From sequence record PZ445550.1: 64,000 nucleotides of DNA. One strand, written 5' to 3'. Shown here in pieces: positions 39,927 through 49,762 of the stretch. Source of the DNA: a phage. Below the pieces are notes generated by a model. The model ran no database searches, was not told the DNA's origin, and worked only from the letters and a program-made list of their open reading frames with translations. Position numbers and translations under genes: made by a program. The stretch's first letter is position 1, and every line of letters begins with the position of its first letter.

Positions 39927-39955
39927 ATTATAGCAAGTATTTAAGCATTTAGCAA
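39927..39955 (-). promoter_or_regulatory. Early promoter in the ligA-ligB spacer
   Basis: Minus strand reads TTGCTA, 17-bp spacer, TATAAT. Confidence 0.55.
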
Positions 39956-40098
39956 CTACAATTTTAACTAACTTTGCTTACCCTCGCCATAACTTTCTAT
40001 CCCTCAACTGAATGATAATAGTATATACCTAAGCGGCGAAAATGTCAATAACCACTTTATAATTCCGATATGGTAGATGGGTAGCAAAGGGTTGTGAA

Positions 40099-41070
40099 TT
40101 AATCGTATACTCGCTCTACTATACATGGGATTACACCACCAGCACGAATCACTCTAATCTGGCAACCAATCTCTAAATCAAGAGAGTTAATATAATCAAC
40201 GTTATTAAGAGTTGCTTTAATAATTGTAGCATCATCAATAATTACTGGTTCGAAATAACCAACTGGAGTTACTTTACCAGAAGCCCCTACTTGCCATTCA
40301 ACTTTAGTAAGAGTTGTAATCTCACCTTCTTCGTCCTCTTTAATAGCAAATGCTCCGCGTGGGAATTTATTAGTCCATCCCTCACGGAAGAATTTATTAT
40401 TATCATTAATACGAACAACTTTACCGTCTGTTGGAATCCATTTAAAAAAGGACCGCACATTAACAACTGTTAAAAAGTTTTCATTTTCTAGCCAAAGCAT
40501 ATCTTTTAAATATGCTTCTGTAATACCTACAGATTCGGAAGAGCACTGAATACCGTAAGCAACAAAAATTAAACCACCTTCCCCTATACGTTGTACGAAA
40601 TCATCACTATCTTTAAGATTAATAGCACCAGAGGCAAAGTTACGTTTATTTTCTACTTCTTTTGTAATTAGAACTTCACCAGTGATTTGGGTTGGTACTT
40701 TTTGAGAAATCTTTTTAGGTATGTTCAGCAATCTTACGTTGCTTGTGACATCATTTCCTAAAATACCGTTACCACGGGTTAGTGCTTGAACAAACTCACC
40801 ATCAATATATAGTAGAGAAATTGCACACCCATCCAGTTTATCTGTTTCTACTTGTCCTAGTGGATTGAATGGTGGTTTGTCTCCACGATTATAGTAAACT
40901 TTCTGCAAAGAATACATACGATATAGATGTGGAATATCACCCTTAGGACCAATCTCTTCTTCCAATGGGAAGCGTTTTACTAGGCAATCATACTCTTCAT
41001 CCGAGATGAGAGACATACCCTGATAATATGCTTCTTGACAACGTTTGATAAATTCTCTTATATTAGTCAT
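40099..41070 (-). CDS. ligA: NAD-dependent DNA ligase, N-terminal subunit (adenylation plus OB fold)
   Basis: KxDG adenylation motif (ETDKLDGCAISLLY); ORF ends where full-length LigA would continue into the zinc finger. Confidence 0.85.
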   Translation of the reverse strand: MTNIREFIKRCQEAYYQGMSLISDEEYDCLVKRFPLEEEIGPKGDIPHLYRMYSLQKVYYNRGDKPPFNPLGQVETDKLDGCAISLLYIDGEFVQALTRGNGILGNDVTSNVRLLNIPKKISQKVPTQITGEVLITKEVENKRNFASGAINLKDSDDFVQRIGEGGLIFVAYGIQCSSESVGITEAYLKDMLWLENENFLTVVNVRSFFKWIPTDGKVVRINDNNKFFREGWTNKFPRGAFAIKEDEEGEITTLTKVEWQVGASGKVTPVGYFEPVIIDDATIIKATLNNVDYINSLDLEIGCQIRVIRAGGVIPCIVERVYD

Positions 41071-41343
41071 TTATTTCACCTCGTAATACATAGGTTGTCT
41101 AGTGGACCCGTGCCATGTATAATTCTTGCACAGATGTAGGTATGTAGTTTTTACTAGCCTATCTGATAGAGGAGAGTATATCTCGGCTATTAGAGTACCT
41201 TTTTCATAGAAGATAGAAACAAACCTATATCCACACCTGGTTTTGGTATATTTCTCTCCGTTAACCTTTTCCTCCCACATAAGAATAAGAGGTTGCCCTA
41301 TGTATGGAAAAGGTTTAAGTGTGCTTATTTTTATCTTTTTCAC
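41071..41343 (-). CDS. Hypothetical early protein
   Basis: 90-aa ORF with GTG start behind GAGAGGG; own promoter upstream. Confidence 0.4.
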   Translation of the reverse strand: MKKIKISTLKPFPYIGQPLILMWEEKVNGEKYTKTRCGYRFVSIFYEKGTLIAEIYSPLSDRLVKTTYLHLCKNYTWHGSTRQPMYYEVK

Positions 41344-41373
41344 TTTACAACCCTCTCATTAATTTATATAAAT

Positions 41374-41402
41374 ATTATATAATAAAATTGGGATGAAAGC
41401 AA
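41374..41402 (-). promoter_or_regulatory. Early promoter
   Basis: Minus strand reads TTGCTT, 17-bp spacer, TATAAT. Confidence 0.55.
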
Positions 41403-41410
41403 GAACATTT

Positions 41411-41446
41411 ATAAAGAAAAAGCCAAGAACTAGGCATTCTTGGCTT
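41411..41446 (-). terminator. Rho-independent terminator
   Basis: Minus-strand hairpin GCCAAGAA-loop-TTCTTGGC followed by TTTTTCTTT. Confidence 0.55.
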
Positions 41447-41738
41447 TGAGTTCTTCAGCTCGTTTCTGTACTTCTTGTAGAACCTCAGATTCACTAAGGA
41501 TCTGTGTAAATGCATAGAAAAGCTGTGATGTTGTTTCTAGGGTGTAAGGGAAAGAGAAACCAGATTTCGTTGGAAACCATTCATCATTAATATCAAGAAG
41601 CCAGTAACGAATACCCATGTATAGATTCCCACGAAATTCAGATACTGTTAATCTTACTTGTTCTCCCTCCTTTTCCCAAAGTATGATAGACTGGTCATCA
41701 ACATGTCCATCGTAGTTTTGATTTACCTGTTCGCTCAT
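41430..41738 (-). CDS. Hypothetical early protein
   Basis: 102-aa ORF. Confidence 0.4.
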   Translation of the reverse strand: MSEQVNQNYDGHVDDQSIILWEKEGEQVRLTVSEFRGNLYMGIRYWLLDINDEWFPTKSGFSFPYTLETTSQLFYAFTQILSESEVLQEVQKRAEELKAKNA

Positions 41739-41788
41739 TTACATATCCCAAATACACAAAAAGCCCCATATAGGGGCTAATTGGTTTC

Positions 41789-42085
41789 TTATCGGCCTAC
41801 TGGAGAAGCACGATCTAACTCTGACTGGAGACTAGTCACACGGCGGACTTTCTCAACAGGAATAAAACGGAAGCTATCATTAGTACGAGAGAAGACAAGA
41901 ATTTCATTATCTTTCGCCTTACGAATACGTTCACGTTTAATACGCTCAGCCAAATATTTATCTTGGGCTGGATCAAATTCCATCGTACCCTGAAGGTACG
42001 TGGTTCCTTTCTGACGAAGTTTTTCGTAATGAAGATAAAACTCACCAAATTTTTCGCACTGTGCAATAATTTCAGCTTTGGTCAT
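41789..42085 (-). CDS. Hypothetical early protein
   Basis: 98-aa ORF, basic and coiled-coil-like. Confidence 0.4.
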   Translation of the reverse strand: MTKAEIIAQCEKFGEFYLHYEKLRQKGTTYLQGTMEFDPAQDKYLAERIKRERIRKAKDNEILVFSRTNDSFRFIPVEKVRRVTSLQSELDRASPVGR

Positions 42086-42122
42086 AACTGTAGTTCCTTT
42101 TGTTGGTGGATTTATCTAGAAA

Positions 42123-42533
42123 TTACTTAGTGATAGCTCGGATTGCTTCTGCTAGGTGAGCAGCCGCTTTACCAGTCAATTTATCAATAATTGCATCATC
42201 CAAGAAGTCAGATGCTAGACCTGCATCAGAGAATGCAGCACGAAGATCTGAGTGGGCCTGGGCTTTAGAAGTACGGGAACCGCCAGAAGATTTTTCTCCA
42301 GTAGATGCACTTGATTTAGCCGTAGAACCAGCAGCTTTCTTAATATACAGACCTGCTTTGGTTAACTTCATACGGAATCCGTTCGGAGTTACACCATTTT
42401 CCTGGGCAATTTCGCTAACAATTTCCATGCTAACACCAGGACGTTCATCCTCTGGGAATTGTTCCATACGAGCAACATATTCGGAAGACATTTTTTCAAA
42501 CAGTTCATCAGTCCACTGAGTTGGGGTAGTCAT
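42123..42533 (-). CDS. Hypothetical early protein (Ala/Ser-rich)
   Basis: 136-aa ORF with E. coli-optimal codons; ATG sits about 55 nt downstream of a promoter. Confidence 0.45.
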   Translation of the reverse strand: MTTPTQWTDELFEKMSSEYVARMEQFPEDERPGVSMEIVSEIAQENGVTPNGFRMKLTKAGLYIKKAAGSTAKSSASTGEKSSGGSRTSKAQAHSDLRAAFSDAGLASDFLDDAIIDKLTGKAAAHLAEAIRAITK

Positions 42534-42590
42534 ATTTTATATTTCCTTAATTAAGAATTAAACAGAATAGTTCTTTCAAACTATGAGAAT

Positions 42591-42619
42591 ATTATATCAA
42601 GAATTATAGGATTAAGCAA
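42591..42619 (-). promoter_or_regulatory. Early promoter
   Basis: Minus strand reads TTGCTT, 17-bp spacer, TATAAT. Confidence 0.55.
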
Positions 42620-42636
42620 CTGAAATTTTTCAGTAA

Positions 42637-42888
42637 TTACTCCACTAGGCCTACAGCGAGCATATCATCAATGCTGGCAATCTCCCAATCATCAGCAATA
42701 GCTTCACATACTGTTATATTAACAACCTCACTGTACGGATAATTACCCGCTACCCAAATATGTTGAGTAGCTACATCTAAATCAGCATCTAAAGTTAGCA
42801 GCACTAAGCCATAGTTATCATTATTCCAGCTTTTTCTGTATAGTGTTTTTGTTTCACCATCCTTTAACAGCTCTGTTAATTTACTCAC
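42637..42888 (-). CDS. Hypothetical early protein
   Basis: ORF with probable GTG start at 42888 overlapping the upstream stop codon. Confidence 0.35.
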   Translation of the reverse strand: MSKLTELLKDGETKTLYRKSWNNDNYGLVLLTLDADLDVATQHIWVAGNYPYSEVVNITVCEAIADDWEIASIDDMLAVGLVE

Positions 42889-43585
42889 GGCGTTTTCCTT
42901 TCTCTTTATCAAGTTTCAGAGCAGCTTTGACAGCTTCATTAATCAACGTGATTACTTCTTCTCGAGTCCATTTATATCCTAAGGATTTTACATCAACCCC
43001 TAGCTTTTCCAGATGCTTTACAGAAGCTAATTCATAATTCATATAATGAACGTTCTGCTGTTTACCTTCCGATAGTAGCCAAACTCGATAACAACCAACA
43101 GGATTATCCATTGCTTTTTTGATTTCACCGATACATTGATAGCCAGGAACCCAAACTAGTTCTCCGACTTCAAATTCTTCAGCTACTGCATCATCAGGGA
43201 TGATTGGCGGATTTAATGGGTCTACAATATCGTTAAGACGAAGCAGAGCACCATAGCGTTCCAAAACTGATTTAACCATTGCTACCGAACGATAATTACG
43301 ATCTGCAATCTCTTCAAAAGAATCACCAGATAGATACTGTTCAATAACGTTGGCTAACTCGATGCCTTCAATGAGTGTACCACGTTTCTTTTTCTTCATC
43401 TCGGCAACTTGAATCTGACGGTCTTGCCATTCTTCAATCATCCTTTCCATAGTCGGATTAGAAGAAACACCGAGCATTTCACACGCTGCTTTCTTAGTAC
43501 CACCGTTCTCCAGATGCTCTATAACCTTTTTAAAGACTTCATCCGGGATTTCATGGATATGTTTCTTTCTGCGAGAACCAGCCAT
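42881..43585 (-). CDS. Putative HTH DNA-binding early protein
   Basis: 234 aa; predicted helix-turn-helix (GGTKKAACEMLGVSSNPTMERMI); first gene behind a P_N25-like promoter. Confidence 0.45.
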   Translation of the reverse strand: MAGSRRKKHIHEIPDEVFKKVIEHLENGGTKKAACEMLGVSSNPTMERMIEEWQDRQIQVAEMKKKKRGTLIEGIELANVIEQYLSGDSFEEIADRNYRSVAMVKSVLERYGALLRLNDIVDPLNPPIIPDDAVAEEFEVGELVWVPGYQCIGEIKKAMDNPVGCYRVWLLSEGKQQNVHYMNYELASVKHLEKLGVDVKSLGYKWTREEVITLINEAVKAALKLDKEKGKRRE

Positions 43586-43626
43586 ATTTAAACTCCTCTC
43601 TCAAATTTATGAATCTATTATACAGA

Positions 43627-43655
43627 AATTTTTTGCATTATGCAAATAAATTTTT
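43627..43655 (-). promoter_or_regulatory. Strong early promoter, T5 P_N25-like
   Basis: Minus strand: TTGCAT, 17-bp spacer, TATAAT, then AGATTCATAAATTTGAGAGAGGAG leader, which matches the T5 P_N25 promoter as recalled. Confidence 0.65.
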
Positions 43656-43896
43656 ACGATTCCTTGAGCAAAGAAGCAAGTTCAGCATAGACTTTATCTA
43701 ACTCAAAGCCGATGCGAAGAGACACGTTAGTTTTCCGTTGTTTAAGTAACCACTCGGATATGTTAGGGATACCAGCTAATCTATGTGGTACCACCCTACA
43801 TAGCTTTTCCGAAGTATCGTAAACAGGAACTTTACGCTCTTTTACTGGAAACTTCCTTGTTTCCCATTTTTTATTCTTCGCTGTCATTCCTAGCAC
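43654..43896 (-). CDS. Hypothetical early protein
   Basis: 80-aa ORF overlapping the 3' end of the large helicase gene. Confidence 0.35.
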   Translation of the reverse strand: MLGMTAKNKKWETRKFPVKERKVPVYDTSEKLCRVVPHRLAGIPNISEWLLKQRKTNVSLRIGFELDKVYAELASLLKES

Positions 43897-46738
43897 CTAA
43901 CTCTGCCATTGCTTCATCATGCATATGTTTCTCCTCATCGGTCATAAACTTATAAGGAATTGGCATACACTCGATTTTACAATAGGTTCTGTACCAGTCT
44001 ATAATATTCTCCGTGTTCATATCCTTACCAATACCCATCATACCAAGATACATTCTCGCATATTTTGGGTTAGCACTCTGACCTGTTTTAAGAAAGAAAT
44101 CTTTTTTCTTACCTTTCAGAGCTTCTATGAAGGGTTTGATAGTGACATTTGAACACTTCTTAATATCTTCCCAAAACATCTCGTGCATTTTATGAAAGAA
44201 TGCAGCTCGATCATTTGGTTTATCTTTGATATACTGCTCAACATGCTCTACTGTTACGTCTTTAATAGACTCAAGATGGTAGTAGCGAACAAGGAGTAGT
44301 TTAGCTTCATATGCATCCGCATGGCGTGGAGCACAGTAATCAGGGGTTGAGTGCAGGATAGCTTTAATTCGCTCTTCTGTATATTCTTTACCCGCACCTT
44401 CAATAGTTCCCCAGCTTTCACTGAAAATATCAATAGTTGCTCCCTGATCTAGCAGATAATAACGTAAAGTACTGGTATAATTCCTAGATTCAAGCTCCCT
44501 ACGACGTGCGTATAATTGTTGGGCTAATTCTAACCAACCTTCATCAATATTATACTGTTCAGAACCTGCTGAGAATCCACTAGTGGATTTATCTATAAAA
44601 TAATAGATATTCTGAGCACCACGGTCGCGCCTAATTGCTTGAAAACGCATGTTTGGTGCTTGGTTACTAGTTCTAGTAATAACGAATACGTTATCAAAAT
44701 AATTAAAGTCAACCCCACTCGTTACTGATGGACTACATAATAAACAATCAATCTGTTGATCAATTAGCTCATTAGTTGTGTAATCCAGAATACGTCTAAT
44801 ATCCACATCAGACGTAGAGTTTGAGTGGATTTCCTTAACTAACGCACCAGTATTACGACGCAGTGCCATACCTTTTTCGTTAAGTTCATCAGGCCCACAA
44901 TCAGATACTAGAATTGATTTCTCACCCATCTCTAAAGATGTTTGAAGTGCAACCCAAATACTGGATTCATCGGGAAACTCATACGCATGAGCCTTTGATA
45001 GCATTTTACGGTGATGGTTATAAAATGCTACTGGTTTATCAAAATCAATAAGAGAACCATAAGCTTCAATCGTCTCAGCACTAATATCGCCATCCGATAA
45101 TATTACAGTTTTAGCTGTCATGAGAATATCACGAAGAACCTGAATACACTCACGGCGTTGTTTAACAACTGGAGCGAACAGCAGATCATTCATTACAGCG
45201 TCGCATTCATCAATAAAAATGGTGTCTATTTGACCAATGAAACTCTTAAATTTGTGCAAAGAATGGATAGTTGTAGACATACGATCAATAGCGCCGCGCT
45301 TAAAATTAAGCATATCAACTGATTTATCATACTGTCCCGCACTAAACTTTTTGGCATTTGAGGATACAAGTGCTCTAGTATTTGTAACTGCCAAAAAATT
45401 TCCTGGAAGAACGCCAGCATCAAGCCATTTAGTTACTGCCGTAGTTTTACCCGTACCAAGACTTGCCTTAACAAATGTTATATGATTTTTTGGAGGCACA
45501 ATGTTAATCTTCAGATATGGGACTTCTGGGGGAGAATCAGTATCTAGACGTTTTAATGGTACACCTTTTAGATTTGGTGGAATCTCACGTTTGGAATTGT
45601 TCACAAACGCTTTAAGAGCTTGCTTACGACCATTATTAAAATAATCTTGAATATTACGACTGTTATCTTTTGTTGCAATATATTCGGATAAAGCAGGTTT
45701 AATCTCACGTTCTAACCATGCAAAATCAACACCATCCTCTAGTGCTCTGTGATAAAGCTTTGGTATAATACGTAGATACACCCCATCCTCAGCTTCTTCT
45801 AATTCGCTGATGGTTTCTTCTACTTTATCAGATGCGATCTTTTTACCTTTAATTTGGTCAAGTAAAGAATAGAACTCTTCCTTAAACTCCCCTCTAGTTG
45901 TTTCATAGTCAACTAGATTATTAGGCAGATTTATTTTCGAACCTTTAACATACACTAGACGTGGTTTATTCTCCGCTTTAAACGGATCAACTATACCATC
46001 ATTAAATAAAGGATCAGCAAAATAGTGAAGCTGTACAGAAGAGTAATAAGCTAAGTCGGCAATATCAAAGCCATACTTTTGTTTACTACTGTCATTGATA
46101 GATGTAAATAAGAACTTTAATTGCCCTTGTGTTACCTTAACATTAGATTCTAGTATTAAGTGCATTCGGATACCTGGTTTTAGTCCAGCCGAAGACGATG
46201 CATGAGCAATAAACCCTGCATCAAGAGGAAACATATCCTCACTAATACTATTCAACATCTTAATAATATGCCGCGCCATACCAACAAGATTAAACTTGTC
46301 ATAGCCACCAGTATCTATAATACCATCCACATCCATAGCGACTATATGGCTAGGGTTGGAAACATTAAAGTTACCTCGGATACGACGAACATTATCTTTT
46401 GGAGCTAAACATTTACCACGAATAGCTACAATATGCGGATCCCTTGTGAGACGACGCATAATAGGCAACATTTCAGCAAGATTCTGTGGGTCAAGTTCTT
46501 CAAGTACATCAAATTTGAAGGGCATGGAAGCTGGTTTACCTTCTGGATGCTCTTTAGAGAATCTCTTTGCAAAGGTATAATCTTCCGCTTTGATCTCTTT
46601 CCAGATACCTGTGGCTTTATCTCTGGAAAATCCTGCATGACCTTGTAGGATTGAGAACACAACAGTACTCCTATGTTGGTTATTCGGATATTTTTCTCTA
46701 GGACTATTCAGAAAGAATAGAACAACTATTACTACCAT
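43871..46738 (-). CDS. Large SF2-type ATPase/helicase, putative replication origin-binding protein
   Basis: Walker A SLGTGKTT, Walker B IFIDECD, helicase C motifs; N-terminal start uncertain. Confidence 0.6.
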   Translation of the reverse strand: MVVIVVLFFLNSPREKYPNNQHRSTVVFSILQGHAGFSRDKATGIWKEIKAEDYTFAKRFSKEHPEGKPASMPFKFDVLEELDPQNLAEMLPIMRRLTRDPHIVAIRGKCLAPKDNVRRIRGNFNVSNPSHIVAMDVDGIIDTGGYDKFNLVGMARHIIKMLNSISEDMFPLDAGFIAHASSSAGLKPGIRMHLILESNVKVTQGQLKFLFTSINDSSKQKYGFDIADLAYYSSVQLHYFADPLFNDGIVDPFKAENKPRLVYVKGSKINLPNNLVDYETTRGEFKEEFYSLLDQIKGKKIASDKVEETISELEEAEDGVYLRIIPKLYHRALEDGVDFAWLEREIKPALSEYIATKDNSRNIQDYFNNGRKQALKAFVNNSKREIPPNLKGVPLKRLDTDSPPEVPYLKINIVPPKNHITFVKASLGTGKTTAVTKWLDAGVLPGNFLAVTNTRALVSSNAKKFSAGQYDKSVDMLNFKRGAIDRMSTTIHSLHKFKSFIGQIDTIFIDECDAVMNDLLFAPVVKQRRECIQVLRDILMTAKTVILSDGDISAETIEAYGSLIDFDKPVAFYNHHRKMLSKAHAYEFPDESSIWVALQTSLEMGEKSILVSDCGPDELNEKGMALRRNTGALVKEIHSNSTSDVDIRRILDYTTNELIDQQIDCLLCSPSVTSGVDFNYFDNVFVITRTSNQAPNMRFQAIRRDRGAQNIYYFIDKSTSGFSAGSEQYNIDEGWLELAQQLYARRRELESRNYTSTLRYYLLDQGATIDIFSESWGTIEGAGKEYTEERIKAILHSTPDYCAPRHADAYEAKLLLVRYYHLESIKDVTVEHVEQYIKDKPNDRAAFFHKMHEMFWEDIKKCSNVTIKPFIEALKGKKKDFFLKTGQSANPKYARMYLGMMGIGKDMNTENIIDWYRTYCKIECMPIPYKFMTDEEKHMHDEAMAELGARNDSEE

Positions 46739-48114: not shown

Positions 48115-48621
48115 TTATACCTTAAATTGTTGTAATGATTTACACATCTCAAGCTCTGGACTAAACTCCAGCATATAGCGAGCAGCCATTAGATCTTGAA
48201 GATTTATACCAGTCTTACCATTGACTATAACTGTAGGATACTGATACATCATAGCGCCAGCGTCATCCAATACACACCAGTGCTTAAGTTTGTGTTTTTC
48301 TACAAACCTAAGTACAGAATTACCCCTAGATAATCCACCACCAGTAAAATCCGTTGTACCTAAAAAACGATCGATAAGACCTAATCCGGTCATAATCCGA
48401 ACGTTCTCCATCTCATTTTTAACAGAAAACCATGAAGATACCCCAACAATCATTATTGAAGAGGGACGAATAAAATCCTGAAAAGCCTTGAGAAGCGGTT
48501 TAAAAACCCAATCACCCCCGAAGAAGATCTTTTCATCGTCAGGTGCATGGTGGTGAGAGATGCTAGAATTGAGCACCCCATCAATGTCTAGAAAAATAAT
48601 CGGAGTATTACTTATTTCCAT
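48115..48621 (-). CDS. HAD-like hydrolase/phosphatase (putative)
   Basis: N-terminal IIFLDIDGVLNS matches HAD motif I (DxDG[TV]). Confidence 0.5.
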   Translation of the reverse strand: MEISNTPIIFLDIDGVLNSSISHHHAPDDEKIFFGGDWVFKPLLKAFQDFIRPSSIMIVGVSSWFSVKNEMENVRIMTGLGLIDRFLGTTDFTGGGLSRGNSVLRFVEKHKLKHWCVLDDAGAMMYQYPTVIVNGKTGINLQDLMAARYMLEFSPELEMCKSLQQFKV

Positions 48622-48823: not shown

Positions 48824-48966
48824 ATATCCTCCGTAGTATAGATAATTTTATATGTATTGCCCAATCTTTCTTTTACACTAGCAAATCTATAGGCAAACCT
48901 ATAACACCAAATACCAGATTCGGTTATAAAAATATCCCATTCATTATTTATTGCTTCCTGGCACAT
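48781..48966 (-). CDS. Hypothetical small protein (WCYR motif)
   Basis: 61-aa ORF, paralogous motif to 48608-48823. Confidence 0.35.
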   Translation of the reverse strand: MCQEAINNEWDIFITESGIWCYRFAYRFASVKERLGNTYKIIYTTEDIWLSSGEGGKQICP

Positions 48967-49762
48967 AAGGTCTATCCTCTAAATGAGCTTCCACACGAGC
49001 AATAAAATCAGGGTCACTGAAAGCATCCACCGCACCTTTACTCCAGTAAGGGACACCACGTTCTTCCAACTGGTACATCTCACTACGAGTCATACCTTGA
49101 TAGCCTGGCTCTGCCGCTAGGGCACTATCATAGTAGTTAACTACCATTAATTTGGCAGCAGTCAAATTAAGAACAGGAAATAATTCCCAATAGAAGTTAA
49201 TTACTTGGTTAGAGCAACCAACCACAATGATCATATCTTGATTGGTAATACCATCAAAAACATTGTACATTTCTGCATATGCTGGAGCATGCTCCCCAAA
49301 GAAGATTACATTAGGTTTAACCCATTTATAATCATCTGGGTCAATAGAATTGTACCCTACATTAATAATCCGTTTATTGCTACTATTGTAGCTATCAGCT
49401 ACAACAACCTCTTTTAAATATCCATGAATGTGCAGAATGTCACTATGTGGAACGCCAGCACGCTCAATAAGGTCATCAACGTTGGTAGTAAGGTTTACTA
49501 CTTGATTTGGATACCGTTTATACCACTCACCAATACGAAGGTGGGCAAGATTAGGTTCAACAGTTTCTAGTTCTTCACGGCGTTTATTATAGAACTCATG
49601 AGTTTTGTGGTAGCAATCTCCTAAAAAGGTATGAATATTGCATACTTCTTCAATATTAAACTCGTCCCACATCGCTTTACCAGTACTGGAGTCAGTACGA
49701 AATGCGCGTACGCCGCTTTCAACACTTAAACCTGCACCACTAATAATAATTAGCCTACGCAT
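48944..49762 (-). CDS. Sir2-family protein (NAD-dependent deacylase / ADP-ribosyltransferase-like)
   Basis: GAGLSVESGVRAFR (Sir2 GAGIS...SGIP.FR), TTNVDDL (TQNID-like), HIHG catalytic His; no CxxC zinc ribbon. Confidence 0.6.
   Translation of the reverse strand: MRRLIIISGAGLSVESGVRAFRTDSSTGKAMWDEFNIEEVCNIHTFLGDCYHKTHEFYNKRREELETVEPNLAHLRIGEWYKRYPNQVVNLTTNVDDLIERAGVPHSDILHIHGYLKEVVVADSYNSSNKRIINVGYNSIDPDDYKWVKPNVIFFGEHAPAYAEMYNVFDGITNQDMIIVVGCSNQVINFYWELFPVLNLTAAKLMVVNYYDSALAAEPGYQGMTRSEMYQLEERGVPYWSKGAVDAFSDPDFIARVEAHLEDRPYVPGSNK

Follow-up and report, generated by a model that had tools for sequence, protein, structure and literature searches.

Introduction

P-N25 and P-N26 are classical strong promoters of Escherichia coli, which were defined in coliphage T5 decades ago. 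Strong sigma-70 promoters have since been reported in front of the early genes of this phage, and the switch between its temporal classes has remained unexplained, since sigma-70 promoters serve every class of T5 genes (PMC7472727). Host takeover by T5 is attributed to the pre-early genes A1, A2 and their neighbours, and the anti-defence island described for the T5 family (Rad, tRNA-Tyr and ORF71-73 of phage SP15) is located in the deletable tRNA region (10.1101/2023.03.15.532788). Here we analyse a stretch of phage DNA of 64,000 nucleotides (sequence record PZ445550.1; this whole stretch is called the window below), and within it the minus-strand genes at positions 41071-43896, which lie between the ligase gene ligA and a large helicase gene. 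A first-pass annotation, made from the sequence alone, had described this interval as a cluster of seven small early genes, each behind its own strong promoter, and had taken their products for factors of host takeover or anti-defence. We find that the interval is the known, annotated D2-D3 early-gene block of T5, embedded in the replication module, and that its core products are probably small nucleic-acid-binding accessory factors, not an anti-defence set.

Identity and layout of the block

Over positions 41000-44000, the window is 100% identical to the T5-like Escherichia phage KookSpook (PP925842.1). Megablast of this interval matched 491 phage records, and the other matches are T5-like phages at 80-97% identity (Demerecviridae, mostly Tequintavirus and Epseptimavirus). 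Seven minus-strand open reading frames (ORFs), numbered g1 to g7 in the direction of transcription (Table 1), lie between ligA (40099-41070) and a gene of 955 amino acids (aa) for a helicase/origin-binding protein (43871-46738), which is labelled 'replication origin binding protein' in KookSpook. In the T5 reference records, six of these genes appear under the names T5.110, D2/T5.111, T5.112, D3/T5.113, T5.114 and T5.115, with protein identities of 83-100% between the orthologs, and the interval is the ortholog of T5.110-T5.115 with one extra ORF. The surrounding replication module runs in the order origin-binding helicase, D2-D3 block, ligA, ligB, D5, DnaB-like helicase, primase and polymerase. 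The block as such is thus already known, given that an identical annotated genome has been deposited, the T5 promoters were defined long ago, a crystal structure of the PC4-like protein exists and the fitness of the T5 genes has been measured.

All seven ORFs listed by the first-pass annotation are present and are annotated as coding sequences in PP925842.1, with two starts revised on the basis of annotation and ribosome-binding-site context: g1 probably begins at the ATG at 43887 (77 aa) and not at the GTG at 43896, and g3 probably at the GTG at 42888 (83 aa) and not at the TTG at 42912. From the helicase gene through ligA, the successive gene spacings are -17, 68, -8, 103, 37, 50, 86 and 0 nt. 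The helicase stop lies within the first 17 nt of g1, g2 and g3 share 8 nt, g4 and g5 are separated by 37 nt, g6 lacks a promoter of its own and ligA directly abuts g7; co-transcription or translational coupling accounts for four of the seven genes. Judged by these intergenic distances, a promoter stands immediately in front of three genes only, and the view that each gene has its own promoter therefore fails.

Table 1. Genes, promoters and terminators of the block in the order of transcription; the last column gives the number of records matched by tblastn in a search of 50,697 phage records.
Feature	Coordinates	Strand	Description	Phage records
g1	43654..43887	-	77-aa basic protein, ortholog of T5.110; phrog_5291	525
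P-N25 ortholog	43617..43645	-	TTGCAT, 17 nt, TATAAT; then conserved leader ATAAATTTGAGAGAGGAG; drives g2-g3	
g2	42881..43585	-	234 aa; D2 (T5.111) in NC_005859, D3 in AY692264	907 (357 Vibrio phages among them)
g3	42637..42888	-	83 aa, GTG start, T5.112 ortholog, putative divergent DUF2829/Tad2-like protein; variable D2-D3 slot	271
P-N26 ortholog	42591..42619	-	TTGCTT, 17 nt, TATAAT; drives g4-g5, plus g6 by read-through	
g4	42123..42533	-	136 aa, D3 (T5.113) in NC_005859; phrog_1725 'DNA binding protein'	561 (including Vibrio and Aeromonas phages)
g5	41789..42085	-	98 aa, ortholog of T5.114; modelled helix and Sm-like small beta-barrel	597
Terminator 1	41762..41778	-	hairpin AGCCCC-TATAT-GGGGCT and U-tract, between g5 and g6; -16.2 kcal/mol, z -4.1	
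g6	41430..41738	-	102-aa PC4-like single-stranded DNA-binding protein, ortholog of T5.115	
Terminator 2	41419..41447	-	12-bp stem over the g6 stop codon and U-tract; -17.3 kcal/mol, z -4.3	
Third T5-type promoter	41374..41402	-	TTGCTT, 17 nt, TATAAT; ortholog of the unnamed T5 ligA promoter; drives g7-ligA	
g7	41071..41343	-	90-aa ORF, GTG start, between third promoter and ligA; phrog_35018	

Conservation and selection

Conservation within the block was determined by comparing the window genes with six other T5-like loci. Five of the genes (g1, g2, g4, g5 and g6) retain 94-100% amino acid identity within Tequintavirus (95-99% for g1, 99-100% for g2 and 95-97% for g4) and 74-88% in comparison with Yersinia phage phiR2-01, thereby tracking ligA and the helicase gene. 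The remaining two behave differently: g3 retains 83-87% in close relatives and 32-47% in others, and g7 retains 82-83% where it is present and is otherwise missing. All seven genes are under purifying selection, with ratios of nonsynonymous to synonymous substitution (dN/dS) of 0.003-0.12, which marks every ORF as a real gene. The first-pass annotation was right insofar as the ORFs are conserved. The ratio is 0.003-0.008 for g2 and, in the closer comparisons, 0.02-0.09 for g1, g4, g5 and g6 (0.03-0.09 for g1), values which for these five core genes are comparable to those of ligA and the helicase gene; for g3 it is about 0.1, and for g7 about 0.06 or lower.

The core genes also reach far beyond the relatives of T5 that infect Escherichia. 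D2, D3 and T5.114 are found in Demerecviridae of Vibrio and, variously, of Aeromonas (D2, D3), Proteus (D2, T5.114), Klebsiella and Serratia. The order D2-D3-T5.114-PC4-ligA is kept in phages of Vibrio (Ermolyevavirinae), Proteus (Novosibvirus) and Serratia, and an Aeromonas phage (Shenzhenvirus) has D2-D3, one differently annotated ORF and then ligA. Among the matching records, 'Campylobacter phage C13' (MG065692.1) shows about 97% DNA identity to the region and an identical T5.114 protein, and 'Listeria phage LM 4-11-1' (OR847284.1) a D2 protein identical to that of the window; the host labels of both records look doubtful.

Fitness of the orthologous genes in T5

A CRISPRi-ART knockdown screen of T5 provides functional data for the orthologs of six of the genes (PMC11879866, supplementary file 16). 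In this data set D3 (score 2.32, p=3e-7) and T5.114 (score 3.04, p=1.5e-7) are both rated 'Fit', with D5 (3.25) and pol (1.74) as comparators, and among the rows of the file considered here, positive values occur only for A2, D11, D5, T5.114, C1, D3 and pol. D2 is rated 'Semi-Fit' (-2.60), and T5.110, T5.112 and T5.115 are all 'Not Fit' (PMC11879866). The screen is a standard laboratory assay, and the passages of the paper that describe it, as far as they are considered here, mention no added defence system (PMC11879866). D3 and T5.114 thus rank among the most fitness-critical genes of T5. Beyond this data set, the literature on T5.110-T5.115, on T5 transcriptomes and on Thoeris against T5 yielded little.

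Promoters and terminators

The three promoters of the block align base-for-base with the T5 features 'promoter P-N 25', 'promoter P-N 26' and the ligA promoter (NC_005859.1/AY692264.1). The window sites agree with T5 P-N25 and P-N26 in the -35 TTGC, a spacer of 17 nt, the -10 TATAAT and the leader, and at the P-N25 site the -35 TTGC, the -10 TATAAT and an ATAAATT leader are kept in 8 phages, out to Serratia phage Slocum. The positions given by the first-pass annotation for promoters (43627, 42591 and 41374) agree with these sites, each of which has a TTGC -35 and a perfect TATAAT -10 (43645-43617, 42619-42591 and 41402-41374), and its description of them as strong early promoters is upheld insofar as orthology to conserved T5 sigma-70 promoters predicts strength.

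The motif TTGC-N18-20-TATAAT occurs 15 times in the window, every copy on the transcribed strand, compared with 1.24 +/- 1.2 copies in shuffled sequences, none of which (0/100) reached 15. A generic sigma-70 scan gave no enrichment (20 sites vs 22 +/- 4.3 in shuffles). Since T5-type promoters have a local density of about 1 per 2.4 kb in the minus-strand early block, three of them in 2.8 kb correspond to roughly 2-3 times that density, which by our own arithmetic is a modest excess.

The terminator that had been placed at 41411 corresponds to the hairpin with U-tract at 41447-41419, which is annotated in HASG4. A second terminator (41778-41762), which had been overlooked, is annotated in HASG4 and also in T5, as rho-independent and located after T5.114. 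As g6 has no promoter of its own, this upstream terminator is probably leaky, to judge from the arrangement of the sequence. A scan of 40000-45000 against Rfam returned sub-threshold chance matches only, and neither iterons nor an origin-like array were seen in a repeat search.

At the P-N25 ortholog, a perfect 15-nt palindrome, TTTGCATAATGCAAA (43632-43646, minus strand), overlaps the -35 element. The equivalent site of T5 reads TTGCTTTCAGGAAAA, and T5_ev212 carries the palindrome with one mismatch. This could be an operator-like site or a product of chance.

Products of the core genes

The product of g2, called D2 here following NC_005859, carries two homeodomain-like helix-turn-helix (HTH) motifs, at about residues 17-45 and 74-114, and ends in a domain rich in beta structure. 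Its Pfam matches, to HTH_28 (22.0 bits) and HTH_23 (15.9 bits), are both sub-threshold, and a profile of 7 orthologs matches the tandem-HTH chain 2LVS of the Protein Data Bank (PDB) with E=2.1e-5, both repeats being aligned. Many GenBank records, and PHROG 3611, call this protein a helicase. That label was rejected in favour of the tandem HTH, as neither Pfam nor NCBIfam shows a helicase or P-loop NTPase domain in g2; the absence of a detectable helicase domain identifies it as an annotation error. By its domain content D2 is predicted to be a DNA-binding protein and not a helicase. The correction is useful in practice. The names D2 and D3 are also applied inconsistently across T5 records: D2 denotes the large helicase and D3 the 234-aa protein in AY692264, and D2 denotes the 234-aa protein and D3 the 136-aa protein in NC_005859.

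The product of g6 passes the Pfam threshold for PC4 (PF02229, 32.1 bits vs a cut-off of 25) and is identical at 100 of 102 positions, over its full length and with two substitutions, to PDB entry 4BG7, the PC4-like protein of T5 (Steigemann et al., 2013, J Mol Biol 425:4125, as cited in PMC7549692). The first-pass annotation had recognized one HTH in the block and no motif in the other products, which does not hold in view of the two HTH motifs of g2 and the PC4 match of g6.

For g5, the ortholog of T5.114, no sequence-family match was obtained. An AlphaFold2 model built on a 23-sequence alignment is confident (pLDDT 90.9, pTM 0.78) and predicts a helix with a small beta-barrel behind it. The solved structures closest to it are WYL domains that sense single-stranded DNA (ssDNA) and Hfq; in the model, the barrel resembles WYL domains in fold. 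Membership in the WYL family was considered and rejected: none of the 23 members has a Pfam WYL match, even at E<=10, and hhalign against five WYL domains of the PDB scored 10.8, which is noise by comparison with shuffles (9.8 +/- 2.0). Because the sequence relation is absent, we speak of an Sm/WYL-like fold only, which as a model points to nucleic-acid binding. Structure prediction, which the first-pass annotation had recommended as a check, was thus informative for g5, in the form of a confident Sm-like barrel; for g3 it yielded no structural match to solved Tad2. Searches of PDB sequences with g2, g4 and g5 found nothing significant, except for the match of the g2 profile to 2LVS.

Vibrio phage Chester (locus L009, 4001-4610), Proteus phage PL1 (L010, 3956-4604) and Serratia phage Slocum (L011, 3501-4122) all have a T5.114 ortholog that runs into the beginning of the PC4-like gene, and this overlap suggests translational coupling of the two genes in these phages. 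In T5-like phages, a terminator hairpin separates T5.114 from the PC4-like gene.

The product of g4, D3, begins with a domain that contains an HTH-like segment, continues with a linker rich in Ser, Gly and Lys and ends in a conserved KLTGKAA helix; no consistent Pfam match was found. Its HTH-like stretch aligns with a repeat of D5 at an hhalign probability of 18%, which is a weak lead, and BLASTP detects no similarity between D3 and D5. A relationship between D3 and D2 was also considered, and comparison of the two showed none.

The small basic protein g1 has no Pfam match, and scans of Pfam, PHROG, PADLOC and NCBIfam were uninformative for it; for the block as a whole, too, PADLOC and NCBIfam gave no useful match. 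Its gene is probably translationally coupled to the upstream helicase gene, since its first 17 nt, from the ATG on, lie within the latter. In T5 (L008, 2319-2837) and phiR2-01 (L007, 1743-2240), an HNH homing endonuclease adjoins T5.110. The window phage has no such endonuclease at this place, and g1 overlaps the helicase gene directly (43871-43887).

A model for the block

The reading of the block as a source of accessory factors for replication and transcription is preferred to a host-takeover or anti-defence cassette because it agrees better with how the genes are conserved, with their synteny, with the domains of the products and with the fitness data from T5. According to this model, host sigma-70 RNA polymerase would transcribe the block from right to left in three units. 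The first would be the helicase transcript, which carries g1. In the second, the P-N25 ortholog would drive D2 and the overlapping g3, and in the third, the P-N26 ortholog would drive D3 and T5.114, with the leaky hairpin cutting read-through into the PC4-like gene and the second terminator ending the unit. The third promoter would then start the g7-ligA unit. D2, D3, T5.114, the PC4-like protein and probably T5.110 would assist the replication and recombination of phage DNA and the transcription that is coupled to replication; they would be needed early and at high levels, and the two terminators would set their relative doses. The slots behind D2 and behind the ligA promoter would act as insertion sites for variable guests, which are represented here by the Tad2-like g3 and the 90-aa g7.

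Several points weigh against this model. For D2, D3, T5.114 and T5.110, we infer the specific roles from the lines of evidence named above, and for D3 in particular an HTH is only suggested, given the inconsistent Pfam matches and the hhalign probability of 18% for D5. The fitness values belong to T5 and not to the window phage, and those of D3 and T5.114 may include a polar effect of one gene on the other. The screen also has false negatives, since the helicase T5.108, the primase and D6 are 'Not Fit' in the rows considered (PMC11879866), and the same rating for the orthologs of g1, g3 and g6 is for this reason weak evidence. Finally, a gene may be essential and nevertheless target the host, as is the case for A1 and A2.

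The variable genes and the Tad2 question

Of the two guests, g3 is the only real candidate for anti-defence. It has a full-length match to the Pfam family PF11195 ('Tad2-like') with 21.6 bits (E=3e-4), below the cut-off of 25, and other g3 alleles score 13.8-19.7 bits. PF11195 is the sole Pfam family for g3 and three diverged phage alleles, again with full-length alignments (E 3e-4 to 0.09), and it is matched by 9 of the 10 family members scanned, with few and weaker chance matches elsewhere. For a comparison of profiles, Tad2 sequences were taken from the PDB via a probe sequence and extended with DUF2829 proteins to an alignment of 106 sequences. Against this alignment, hhalign gave the g3 family a probability of 92.6-92.9% over 68 columns and a score of 39.3, which is 12.8 standard deviations above 100 column shuffles of the same comparison (11.1 +/- 2.2, maximum 21.9); against two Tad2 sequences only, the probability was a weak 34%. 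The predicted topology of g3 (helix, four strands, helix, strand) is compatible with the published description of the Tad2 protomer. In contrast to these matches, g3 alone or as a family profile did not match any Tad2 chain among PDB sequences. An exhaustive HMMER search with g3 returned four small true relatives, together with giant proteins of Ig repeats that were discarded as spurious after a Pfam scan. Taken together, these comparisons make g3 a likely remote homolog of DUF2829.

Within the g3 family, conservation is confined to an N-terminal segment (L-x-x-L-K and R18-x-x-W21-x-N23) and a C-terminal segment ([T/S]59-x-x-E62-x-x-ADDW), and the middle varies freely. In HgmTad2, the gcADPR pocket is formed by W21, N22, G23, S90, T92 and D93 (10.1101/2023.11.15.567273), and the two conserved segments of g3 correspond to those that line this pocket. 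W21 is kept, the asparagine has moved to position 23, S90 corresponds to T or S and D93 to an invariant E; T92 and N22/G23 are not conserved, and W87/L88 cannot be aligned. The gene is patchily distributed; its alleles form two or more classes, which share 32-47% identity although the DNA around them is about 90% identical, and the slot between D2 and D3 is occupied by g3, by another small ORF or by nothing, depending on the phage.

These observations raise the question of whether the g3/T5.112 family is a working Tad2-type sponge, that is, a small homo-oligomer with a remodelled pocket that would sequester an immune signal made from a nucleotide by a system of the TIR/Thoeris-like kind or a related one and would be encoded by a guest gene behind D2, expressed early via P-N25. 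The full-length PF11195 matches, the profile alignment, the predicted topology, the concentration of conservation on the pocket-lining segments and the patchy, divergent alleles all fit such a function, as does the dispensability of T5.112 in the laboratory screen. The sub-threshold Pfam score, the failure of the family profile to find a Tad2 chain in the PDB and the lack of conservation at N22/G23, T92 and W87/L88, which contact the ligand in HgmTad2, speak against it, and a dN/dS of about 0.1 indicates ordinary purifying selection. Furthermore, T5 possesses T5.112 and yet is blocked by an E. coli Pycsar, and it served as a test phage for a CBASS assay with Y. aleksiciae (10.1101/2025.08.24.671296); as wild-type T5 remains restricted by Pycsar, T5.112 is not a broad sponge. 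A sponge function is therefore possible, but on balance doubtful. As a plausible member of the Tad2 family, judged by profile and motif, in one of the best-studied coliphages, T5.112 nevertheless deserves attention. In the literature searched, from which the supplementary tables of Tad2 homologs were left aside, neither T5.112 as Tad2-like nor T5.114 as Sm/WYL-like is described; both assignments are modest new leads within a block that is itself textbook T5 biology.

In KookSpook, two genes for a 'Sir2 NAD-dependent deacetylase' are annotated at about 48115-48621 and 48944-49762 (minus strand). They share the early arm with the NAD-dependent ligase and the Tad2-like gene, an NAD theme that may merit attention.

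The other guest, g7, has no Pfam match and nothing informative in the Pfam, PHROG, PADLOC and NCBIfam scans. Its slot is filled in other phages by unrelated ORFs of 62-66 aa, by one of 188 aa that weakly resembles DprA (DNA_processg_A) or by several small ORFs, and is empty in T5; other ORFs take the place of g7 in loci L005-L007 and L011, among them phiR2-01 (L007) and Slocum (L011). DprA-like/DNA_processg_A-like genes of recombination mediators lie in or beside the ligA slot of the Proteus (L010, 4685-6315), Serratia (L011, 4210-4776) and Vibrio (L009, 7165-7725) phages. On the far side of ligA, the ligA-ligB interval (39927-40048, minus strand) contains two further strong promoter-like sites, at 40048-40020 and 39955-39927, which are positioned as P-K28b and P-K28a of T5, and KookSpook annotates a 40-aa ORF at 40004-40126.

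Other interpretations

Less likely than a functional Tad2-family sponge that acts on an immune signal is the idea that D3 and T5.114 together form a split regulator of the HTH-plus-WYL type, which would sense ssDNA in the manner of BrxR, CapW, DriD or PafBC, perhaps with the PC4-like protein. Throughout Demerecviridae, D3 and T5.114 stand next to each other in a single operon; both are strongly 'Fit', T5.114 overlaps the PC4-like gene in the Vibrio, Proteus and Serratia phages, and the switching of temporal classes in T5 still lacks an explanation (PMC7472727). If such a sensor existed, it would couple replication of T5 to the early-to-late switch of transcription. However, the T5.114 family carries no WYL signal in either Pfam or hhalign, the HTH of D3 is tentative and an interaction between D3 and T5.114 is hypothetical, so that we consider this arrangement unlikely.

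That the whole block is a cassette for host takeover or anti-defence, with each gene expressed from its own strong promoter, is very unlikely: its early timing, its very strong promoters, its mostly small products without biochemically proven function, one Tad2-like gene and one variable slot speak in favour of such a cassette, but three promoters serve seven genes, the five core genes are conserved like replication genes, across hosts from Escherichia to Vibrio, whereas counter-defence genes are patchy and turn over fast, D3 and T5.114 are needed in a knockdown screen for which the passages considered describe no added defence, and the takeover genes and the anti-defence island of the T5 family lie in the pre-early and the tRNA region, respectively, which leaves g3 and g7 as the only genes that may fit the original idea.

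Comparison with known systems

The accessory-factor reading of the D2-D3 block can finally be set against the described systems which it resembles in part. The Tad2/DUF2829 proteins SPO1 Gp34.65 (8SME), HgmTad2 (8KBI) and ModTad2 (9EIB) share with g3 a length of about 75-90 aa, the location on phage genomes and early expression, as well as an N-terminal 'L-x-x-L-K-x-G...R-x-x-W-N', a C-terminal '...[ST]-x-x-[DE]-x-L-A-[ED]-D-W-x-I' a variable middle and, in g3 by prediction, a build of helix and beta-sheet; g3 differs from them by its sub-threshold Pfam score and the changed gcADPR contacts. Compared with the WYL sensors BrxR, CapW, DriD and PafBC and with Sm/Hfq proteins, T5.114 is a stand-alone protein of 98 aa, without a fused winged HTH or WCX domain. 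In addition, its modelled barrel has an extra helix between strands 2 and 3, and its sequence lacks the WYL signature. Between the T5 PC4-like protein (4BG7) and g6, there is no material difference.

The anti-defence island of the SP15 type resembles the D2-D3 block in that its genes, too, are small, are expressed early and belong to T5-like phages. The island is, however, deletable, moderately conserved, 8 kb in size and located elsewhere in the genome, whereas the D2-D3 block is core, syntenic and partly essential. The closest counterpart by far is T5.110-T5.116 of T5 itself (NC_005859.1, AY692264.1), where the genes have the order and sizes seen in the window, the promoters lie at equivalent positions with the same sequences and a terminator likewise follows T5.114. 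The window differs from T5 by g7, the additional ORF of 90 aa that separates the third promoter from ligA, by the lack of the HNH endonuclease hegI beside T5.110 and by the -35 element of P-N25, which reads TTGCAT within the 15-nt palindrome in the window and TTGCTT in T5.

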